Counted from the first letter of the stretch, positions 15,685-16,894 are shown. The stretch: DNA of 64,000 nt from Dictyostelium discoideum (GCA_000004695.1 CM000154.2:832001-896000), one strand, 5' to 3'. Notes: generated from the sequence alone by a model not told the origin. Translations and numbers: made by a program.

Positions 15685-16894
15685 TAGCAATAGCAATAGC
15701 AATAGCGATAGCGATAATAATAGTAATAGTAATAGTGGGGAGAAGGAAAAGGAGATATCTTCATTCTTTAGCTCAGATGATAATGTAAATAATAGCGACT
15801 TCTCAACCAAACCAGCTCCACCAATCATTCCATTTAGTAACTCACCATCTGGTTCCCCATTTGGAGGTAATGAAATGTCACCACCAATAATTCCATTACA
15901 TTCATCATCAGGATTAGTATCAAGTAGACTACCAATTAATCATCAAAGAGCTGATTCATCCGATCAATTCTCTAAATTATTGAGACAACAGGTTGGTGGT
16001 ACTCAACCAAATTCAATGATACCCTGTAAATAGTATTCCACCTACTCCAGTTACTTCAAATAATAGTGGTAGTGTTGGTAAAAGTAGTAGTAGTGTACCA
16101 TCATCCGACAATAACAATAATAACCAACAAGCACCACAAATGATTCCAGTCATTAATAGTCCACCACAAATGATCATTCCAACATTTTCTCATAGTCCAT
16201 CACAAGGATCACCACGTGTAGCTCAAGGATCACCACGCGTTGGAACACCTAATCCAACACATCAACATCAACATCAACATCAACATCAACATAGTTATTC
16301 AAATATGGCACCATCACAATCACACACACCACCACCACCACAAAATCAACCACAACCTCACATACCACCACCACCACAACATCAACCACCACAACAAAAT
16401 AATAATAATAATAATAATAATAATAATAATAATAATAATAATAATAATAATAATAATAATAATAATAATAATAATAATAATAATAATAATAATAATAATA
16501 ATAAAACTACACCAACTTTATTCCAACCAACTCAAAAGAATATTGGTAGATCCGATGCTGATTTTAGTTTACTATTGAAATCTTTAATGACTCAAGGTGA
16601 TATGATTGCTGCTCATCAATTTGCTTTGGATAATGAGTTATGGTTTCATTCTTTAGTTTTAGCTCATCAATTAGGTGCTGAAGTTTATGGCTGTACAATG
16701 CAAGTTCCTCATTACCAACTGGTTCACCATTAAAAACATTCTATAGTCTTTATTCTGGTAATACTCGTGATTTATTTAAAGATATTCCACGAGGTATTAC
16801 TAATAATAATAGTAATAATAATAATAATAATAGTAATAATAATAATAATAAAAATAATAAAAAAATATTAATAATAATATCCATTGATCTTTAA
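15685..16894 (+). pseudogene. Sec16 central-conserved-domain-like coding segment with at least two frame breaks (possible pseudogene, gene fragment or sequence errors)
   Basis: At 16590-16700: QGDMIAAHQFALDNELWFHSLVLAHQLGAEVY. In another frame downstream: SLPTGSPLKTFYSLYSGNTRD. By recall these resemble metazoan SEC16A CCD (GHVVAAHRLALVSGLWAHALLLAS ... PLQTVYQLMSG). Frame shifts occur near 16020-16035 and 16700-16715. No plausible intron explains them. Contains a (AAT)~40 run at 16398-16503. Confidence 0.4.

Follow-up and report, generated by a model that had tools for sequence, protein, structure and literature searches.

A decayed and rearranged copy of Sec16 probably underlies the Sec16-like segment on chromosome 5 of Dictyostelium discoideum

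The Sec16-like segment at positions 16497-16894 of the 64-kb stretch of Dictyostelium discoideum AX4 DNA analyzed here (referred to below, at its full length, as the window) belongs, with a probability of about 0.88, to a rearranged copy of the Dictyostelium Sec16 gene which is not functional. No Sec16 can be encoded by the Sec16-derived DNA of this locus, in which the blade is lacking, only one-third of the helical domain is present, the order of the pieces is permuted, and the frameshifts are real. The homology of this DNA with Sec16 is significant, its disabling lesions are real, and it is absent at the orthologous position in the relatives, as in the case of ordinary decayed pseudogene pieces; it is neither a working gene nor the outcome of sequencing errors. 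One of the two options considered in the original prediction, a degraded Sec16 paralogue or fragment (pseudogene), is thus upheld by the significant homology, the lack of the blade and the later helical positions, and the truncation by repeats.

Sec16 is a scaffold protein of the COPII ER-exit sites, COPII being involved in ER-to-Golgi transport. The Pfam family PF12932 corresponds to the beta-blade which completes the Sec13 propeller, and PF12931 to the ACE1/TPR alpha-solenoid, which comprises about 298 positions. In the window, the start of the helical domain is encoded on the + strand at 16497-16700 in frame 0 (PF12931 positions 2-43, E = 5e-6 when this piece is taken alone), and its continuation, SLPTGSPLKTFYSLYSGNTRDLF, at 16700-16858 in frame +2, which runs on into poly-Asn up to a stop codon at 16892-16894. 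The frame 0 peptide is ...KSLMTQGDMIAAHQFALDNELWFHSLVLAHQLGAEVYGCTMQ..., and the translation of this frame from 16500 reads NKTTPTLFQPTQKNIGRSDADFSLLLKSLMTQGDMIAAHQFALDNELWFHSLVLAHQLGAEVYGCTMQVPHYQLVHH, ending at the stop codon 16731-16733; the frame +2 peptide starting at 16700 is ASSSLPTGSPLKTFYSLYSGNTRDLFKDIPR, and the longer translation from the same position is ASSSLPTGSPLKTFYSLYSGNTRDLFKDIPRGITNNNSNN…. These two peptides, on which the original prediction was based, were found to be located in frames 0 and +2 just as it had said. When the two frames were joined, the PF12931 (TPR_Sec16) score amounted to 39.6 bits (E = 6.9e-10, profile positions 2-102 of 298), the score cut-off being 22; after frame repair, the match reaches position 102-109, with scores of 37-40 bits, and the first ~110 positions of the profile are therefore encoded at 16497-16858 in two frames. 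The proposed likeness to the Sec16 central domain is far above chance: in addition to this Pfam score, the 77-aa frame 0 translation gave three matches, all of them with Sec16, in a phmmer search of 1.84 billion representative proteins (the top one being D. purpureum Sec16, E = 8e-12), and D. purpureum Sec16 used as a tblastn query matched the central-domain piece with E = 1e-24. In this alignment, 16497-16700 corresponds to D. purpureum residues 1202-1272 (52% identical) and 16700-16858 to residues 1276-1318, with 79% identity across the first 29 aa (1276-1304). An ORF of 197 aa with an ATG start (16140-16733) covers the first helices. A PDB sequence search with the central-domain fragment gave no match.

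The central piece is bordered on both sides by repetitive sequences. On its upstream side, a Pro/Gln/His-rich low-complexity run (16020-16504, + strand, frame 0) ends in (AAT)35 at 16398-16504; it occupies the place of residues ~730-1200 of the intact protein, the PF12932 blade included, and in the alignment to another sequence, P0026, the blade falls opposite this low-complexity sequence. On its downstream side, past 16858, the poly-Asn stretch is followed by the stop codon and a possible NDWK remnant, and an 8-bp-unit minisatellite (TGTTAATG, 17 copies) is present at 17080-17215, where the helical domain should continue. The original prediction was right about the existence of this minisatellite and set its start slightly early, at 17037. 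The central piece is therefore cut short by the minisatellite and other repeats, and no Sec16 homology was detected downstream of it anywhere in the window by tblastn with D. purpureum Sec16.

The same tblastn search of the 64-kb window (query P0025) yielded six segments in all, which are collinear by piece, lie in differing frames, and are all on the + strand. Three of them make up a Sec16 C-terminal conserved region. Its first piece, …GLLAGLFWRKKPKTKEINLDDFYYNEELGKWVERGKEAEAIAAS… (11350-11592), is 66% identical to D. purpureum residues 1600-1685 and is also matched by the more distant Sec16 P0017; the second, …DGMITPPPFGGGGGNASPP… (11586-11792), is in another frame after a frameshift near 11588 and is collinear with residues 1684-1745 (46% identical); the third, SLVSPGGPNTRRKPRYVDTLNQTVYTGG…FTPFMPAFDPS… (11783-12037), follows a 2-nt insertion near 11795 which puts it in a third frame, has a stop codon at its end, and is 61% identical to residues 1739-1817 over the aligned positions 11783-12016. 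These three pieces are collinear, with a joint E-value of 2.7e-57, and between them they cover almost the whole of the C-terminal conserved region (GLLAGLFWRKKPK…YYNEELGKWVERGKEAEA…SLVSPGGPNTRRKPRYVDTLNQTVYTGG), which is broken by two frameshifts. A further segment at 15740-16024 (frame +2, EKEISSFF…IPLHSSSG…DQFSKLLRQQV…), which ends at a frameshift near 16022, matches the N-terminal disordered region of the D. purpureum protein (residues 634-728, 39% identical, E = 2e-9). Three kinds of Sec16 sequence have therefore been kept: part of the N-terminal disordered region, the start of the helical domain, and the C-terminal region. Their order is permuted, however, as the C-terminal region (11350-12037) precedes the central-domain piece by 5 kb: motifs such as …YNEEL..WV… and …RYVD… are conserved, but they do not lie downstream of the central domain in a single ORF.

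The PF12932 blade gave no Pfam match in any frame or in the repaired translation, whereas the same search recovered the full PF12932 domain in the D. purpureum protein; the corresponding residues 1068-1177 had no tblastn match in the whole 64 kb. The original prediction had named PF12932 as the family to be looked for: a Sec16 family is indeed matched, but it is PF12931. Residues ~1320-1600 of the D. purpureum protein and the helical-domain positions beyond about 110 are likewise absent from the whole 64-kb window; in all, about two-thirds of this domain is missing. In terms of what a functional Sec16 comprises, the blade is absent, the alpha-solenoid is incomplete, the C-terminal region is misplaced, and there is no continuous ORF.

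The D. purpureum Sec16 (1854 aa, scaffold GL871092.1 of GCA_000190715.1), which was the best match among the 1.84 billion proteins searched, provides the closest intact reference. The pieces in the window show 39-79% identity with it over residues 634-728, 1202-1318, and 1600-1817, and the sequences common to both include GD(I/M)(V/I)AA..FAL.NE.W.H.L.LAHQLG, SLPTG.PLKT.YSLYSG.TRDLF, GLLAGLFW.KKPK, NEELGKWVERGKEAEA, and SLVSPGGPNTRRKPRYVDTLNQTVYTGG. In D. purpureum, the gene consists of one ORF, interrupted only by a 65-nt intron near residue 1446, and encodes a complete PF12932 domain at 1068-1177 and a PF12931 domain at 1231-1493 (263 residues, profile positions 1-274, 169 bits), whereas the copy present in the window has no blade and nothing equivalent to residues ~1320-1600, is distributed over at least five segments in different frames, and starts with what should be its C-terminus.

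The pieces contain at least four frameshifts, the frame changing near 11588, 11795, 16022, and 16698. Near 11795, two extra bases are present (TCTCTT[TG]GTTTCTCCA), and the change at about 16022 (ATGATACCCTGTAAATAG) involves an extra C in ATACCCTGT. Two of these changes, the one between the two central peptides (about 16698) and that near 16020 (about 16022), had already been pointed out in the original prediction, along with the lack of any suitable intron. The latter point is supported here: the frame changes are not introns, since there is no room for introns at these positions and since the only intron of the D. purpureum orthologue lies near residue 1446. We then compared AX4 with a second D. 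discoideum assembly, GCA_054883475.1 (CM142511.1, 5,288,541 bp), which was reached via the ornithine aminotransferase (OAT) protein. The 21-kb stretch compared (L001), which includes no Ns and ends at window position 20741, is identical to AX4 over 11175-12238 and 13492-17282, that is, over all the Sec16 pieces and all the frame changes. Since homopolymer lengths differ between the two assemblies at 9535, 12239, 17399, 18744, and 19245, GCA_054883475.1 is an independent sequence. The disabling lesions are real and are not sequencing errors. The 100-N assembly gap of AX4 at 13392-13491, which lies between the C-terminal piece and the N-terminal and central pieces, corresponds to 418 bp in GCA_054883475.1 (L001 13602-14019) consisting of tandem repeats with ~110-bp and 12-bp units of the GGTGTTTGGATT and GATGGTGATGAT types, with no Sec16 content.

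All the Sec16-like pieces are held in a lineage-specific block (11175-24203, 13,029 bp), which was delimited based on flank alignments and junction sequences. AX4 and GCA_054883475.1 both have the block (from the left junction to window position 20741 in the latter case). It is absent just after the OAT gene in seven other assemblies, those of D. firmibasis, D. citrinum (two assemblies), D. dimigraforme, D. cf. discoideum, and 'D. discoideum' (two assemblies, the OAT region of which shows about 97% identity with that of AX4), of which 21-kb loci were fetched by looking up the OAT orthologue. In all seven, the homology stops at about 11169-11171 and restarts at about 24226-24265. The empty site in the relatives reads …CAAAACATATATCCTAAAAAAGG…; in AX4, the left junction consists of …CAAAACATAT followed after the break by GCATAAAAATT… (GCAT...), and the right junction of …CACAAAATGGT (...AATGGT before the break) followed by CCTAAAAAAGG…. 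The bounds of the insertion given above were deduced from the comparison between the empty site and these junction sequences. Since neither the block nor any Sec16-like sequence is present at the loci of the seven relatives, the Sec16 pieces are a derived addition and not an ancestral Sec16 locus. The block can also be described as a 13,029-bp presence/absence polymorphism, which occurs even among assemblies labelled D. discoideum. The non-coding flanks of AX4 and of the D. discoideum assemblies without the block are about 10% different and show many indels, so that the presence of four or five indels in ~1.2 kb of sequence under no constraint needs no special explanation, and the extent to which the Sec16 pieces have decayed fits the age of the insertion.

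The block also contains sequences unrelated to Sec16. A VPS13_C-like segment (PF25037, 23.1 bits with a cut-off of 21, E = 7e-5) is present on the - strand at 19545-19748, in the middle one of three consecutive open segments which lie in three frames between 19445 and 19896; after the frames were joined, the match scored 21.1 bits. Judging from these sequence features, 19445-19896 may be a second decayed or frameshifted gene fragment, although a marginal one. At 17432-17835, there is an inverted repeat with 186-nt arms, which are 99% complementary, a 32-nt loop, and a relatively high G+C content; it is directly followed by a tandem array (17764-18896) of about 3-4 copies of a 282-bp unit, which opens with part of an arm of the inverted repeat. 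None of the Rfam families reached the gathering score with this inverted repeat, the only matches being sub-threshold ones with generic miRNA hairpins, and it might be a repeat element of the foldback or thug-like type. Also inside the block, two ORFs on the - strand (21667-22638 and 22985-23608) together look like an intact multi-exon gene, and the annotation of GCA_054883475.1 includes a 731-aa gene model at 21667-23608; the product has an N-terminal LIYGRDLKKILTKYVWLRHAVYSLLKGRPVVILGSQDKEQ… stretch, includes a long Pro/Ser/Thr repeat, and is globular at its C-terminus, with no Pfam match and no counterpart at the syntenic loci of the relatives. More generally, 12 ORFs inside the block and two located just to its right had no exact match in the protein collection used for ORF look-ups, which covers D. 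discoideum Logan run assemblies and in which OAT was found.

The neighboring genes have long intact ORFs, and exact matches were obtained with XP_636989 (OAT, 9784-11034), XP_636982 (the BRX1 homologue), and XP_636977 (DDB_G0287929), which assign the window to AX4 chromosome 5. The window is about 77% A+T and has two 100-N gaps, 13392-13491 and 53316-53415. The latter gap sits in a very A+T-rich stretch, the GC content being 0.096 over 53001-54000.

A working Sec16 gene probably exists at a different locus in D. discoideum. Sec16 was reported to be absent from D. discoideum and from both of the amoebozoans sampled in an early survey (Neumann et al., 2010; PMC2951903), whereas DdisSec16 is listed in a later one as XP_646771.1, with a length of 1992 aa (Schlacht and Dacks, 2015, supplementary table; PMC4419792). 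These surveys disagree about the D. discoideum Sec16, and on the basis of its listing, the later study would supersede the earlier claim of absence. The length of 1992 aa is comparable to the 1854 aa of the D. purpureum protein. The accession number of XP_646771.1 is about 10,000 numbers away from those of the local XP_6369xx genes, and the neighbors of the D. purpureum Sec16 gene (DOCK, AD-domain, adh_short, and top2) are not among the genes of the window; for these reasons we infer that XP_646771.1 is encoded elsewhere. This protein, which is from the same species, is listed as full-length and has an accession far from the chromosome 5 neighborhood, would presumably be the parent of the pieces described here. 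No dictyBase identifier for Sec16 was found in our literature search. Word-indexed protein searches with the repaired central piece and with all the pieces concatenated returned either nothing or one distant Sec16, P0017, and among the matches listed with P0017 as the query there were eight Sec16s, none of them from a dictyostelid; since even the D. purpureum Sec16 was missed, although it has many 5-mers in common with the query, this silence says nothing about the D. discoideum Sec16.

The likeness to the duplicated (non-processed) type of pseudogene fragment lies in the partial copies, real frameshifts, internal deletions, truncation by repeats, and presence/absence among relatives; what is unlike the typical cases is the permutation of the pieces and the weak VPS13_C fragment occurring in the opposite orientation in the same block. 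The mosaic of unrelated gene pieces and the A42 run are reminiscent of Pack-MULEs, Helitrons, and 5'-truncated retrocopies, but unlike Pack-MULEs and Helitrons, the block has neither terminal inverted repeats, Helitron ends, nor clear target-site duplication at 11175/24203, and no mobile-element domains. A transposon origin was accordingly rejected: Pfam searches detected no transposase, reverse transcriptase, or integrase domains in the ORFs tested from the block, and there were no tRNAs, no Rfam families at the gathering score, and no terminal repeats. The possibility of a retrocopy was also considered. The pure A42 run at 12239-12280 (A35 in GCA_054883475.1), about 200 bp past the Sec16 C-terminal stop, is not diagnostic of one, since A/T runs of 20 nt or more occur 53 times in the window, and no convincing target-site duplication was seen; as to the loss of introns typical of processed pseudogenes, the parent Sec16 family has almost no introns to lose. 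When the D. purpureum Sec16 locus and its neighbors were compared with the block by tblastx, only the Sec16 pieces were matched, which means that the block is not a copy of a whole Sec16 neighborhood.

The course of events leading to the present situation may have been as follows. A 13-kb block would have been inserted into the intergenic spacer downstream of OAT, carrying Sec16 pieces which are probably duplicated copies of the functional gene located elsewhere; these pieces might either have been fragmented before the insertion or have been rearranged and decayed neutrally afterwards. The copy in the window would have no COPII function, and the working Sec16 would be XP_646771.1, as listed in the literature. 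The candidate processes by which the block might have been built include a tandem-duplication fragment, a re-integrated circle, template switching, and several events. A more specific scenario is that a single insertion event united pieces of at least two unrelated genes (the permuted Sec16 and the VPS13 C-terminus in the opposite orientation) with hairpin and tandem-repeat DNA, via template switching, circular-DNA reintegration, or an undescribed mobile element carrying gene fragments; that the block is polymorphic within the nominal species; and that Sec16-derived transcripts arising beside the 186-nt hairpin might feed a small-RNA pathway. Taken as a whole, this scenario is speculative and in our opinion improbable.

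The possibility that the pieces are not inert, but form an expressed truncated Sec16-derived gene or give rise to a pseudogene transcript or to small RNAs acting on the real Sec16, also seems quite improbable. It could be argued that the annotation of GCA_054883475.1 includes models of 217 aa (L001 11410-12455, window ~11193-12238) and 555 aa (L001 15343-17422, window 14815-16894) over the pieces, that the 197-aa ATG ORF runs across the first helices, and that the almost perfectly complementary inverted repeat lies only 0.5 kb downstream. Both models look like ab initio predictions, however, with no Pfam domain on record, and the start of the 555-aa one lies in a (CAATAG)n repeat, which is translated as MPMPIPMPIAIAIA; the ORFs tested are absent from the protein collection which includes D. 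discoideum run assemblies and the OAT protein; the part of Sec16 which has been kept comprises neither the Sec13-binding blade nor the bulk of the domain; and no Rfam family was matched at the gathering score.

It is even harder to believe that the block might be an assembly artefact resulting from the mis-joining downstream of OAT of contigs from elsewhere, for instance from near the true Sec16 locus. The AX4 gap inside the block, the abundance of repeats in the region, and the permuted order of the Sec16 pieces would all fit this explanation, but a mis-join would neither create frameshifts nor remove the blade, and AX4 is unbroken from 13492 across the right junction. Since GCA_054883475.1 is continuous, with no Ns, from OAT via the left junction and the former gap to 20741, a mis-join is unlikely. 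Lastly, the other option put forward in the original prediction, namely that this is the functional D. discoideum Sec16 locus, with frameshifts due to errors made in base calling or assembly in a low-quality part of the reference sequence flanked by a gap, has next to no probability and can be taken to be refuted: although an assembly gap lies 3 kb upstream and although a sole copy that was garbled might be expected to escape an early survey such as that in which no Sec16 was found (PMC2951903), sequencing error is excluded by the fact that the independent gap-free assembly agrees at every frameshift and that the blade and the bulk of the helical domain are missing and not just frameshifted, and this option is also at odds with the long intact ORFs of the adjoining genes, the C-terminus located upstream of the central domain, the absence of the block at the same site in seven relatives, and the listing of a 1992-aa Sec16 under an unrelated accession (PMC4419792).

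The decayed Sec16 copy described here therefore means that the Sec16-like signal on chromosome 5 is neither a second Sec16 nor evidence that the reference sequence is of poor quality, and because it is a pseudogene, it is not to be counted as a second Sec16 of D. discoideum. The 217-aa and 555-aa models in the recent annotation are probably artefacts overlying pseudogene debris. A strain-specific mosaic insertion of this kind is a minor curiosity, but a 13-kb polymorphism containing scrambled gene fragments might provide a case study on mosaic insertions in an AT-rich, repeat-prone genome.
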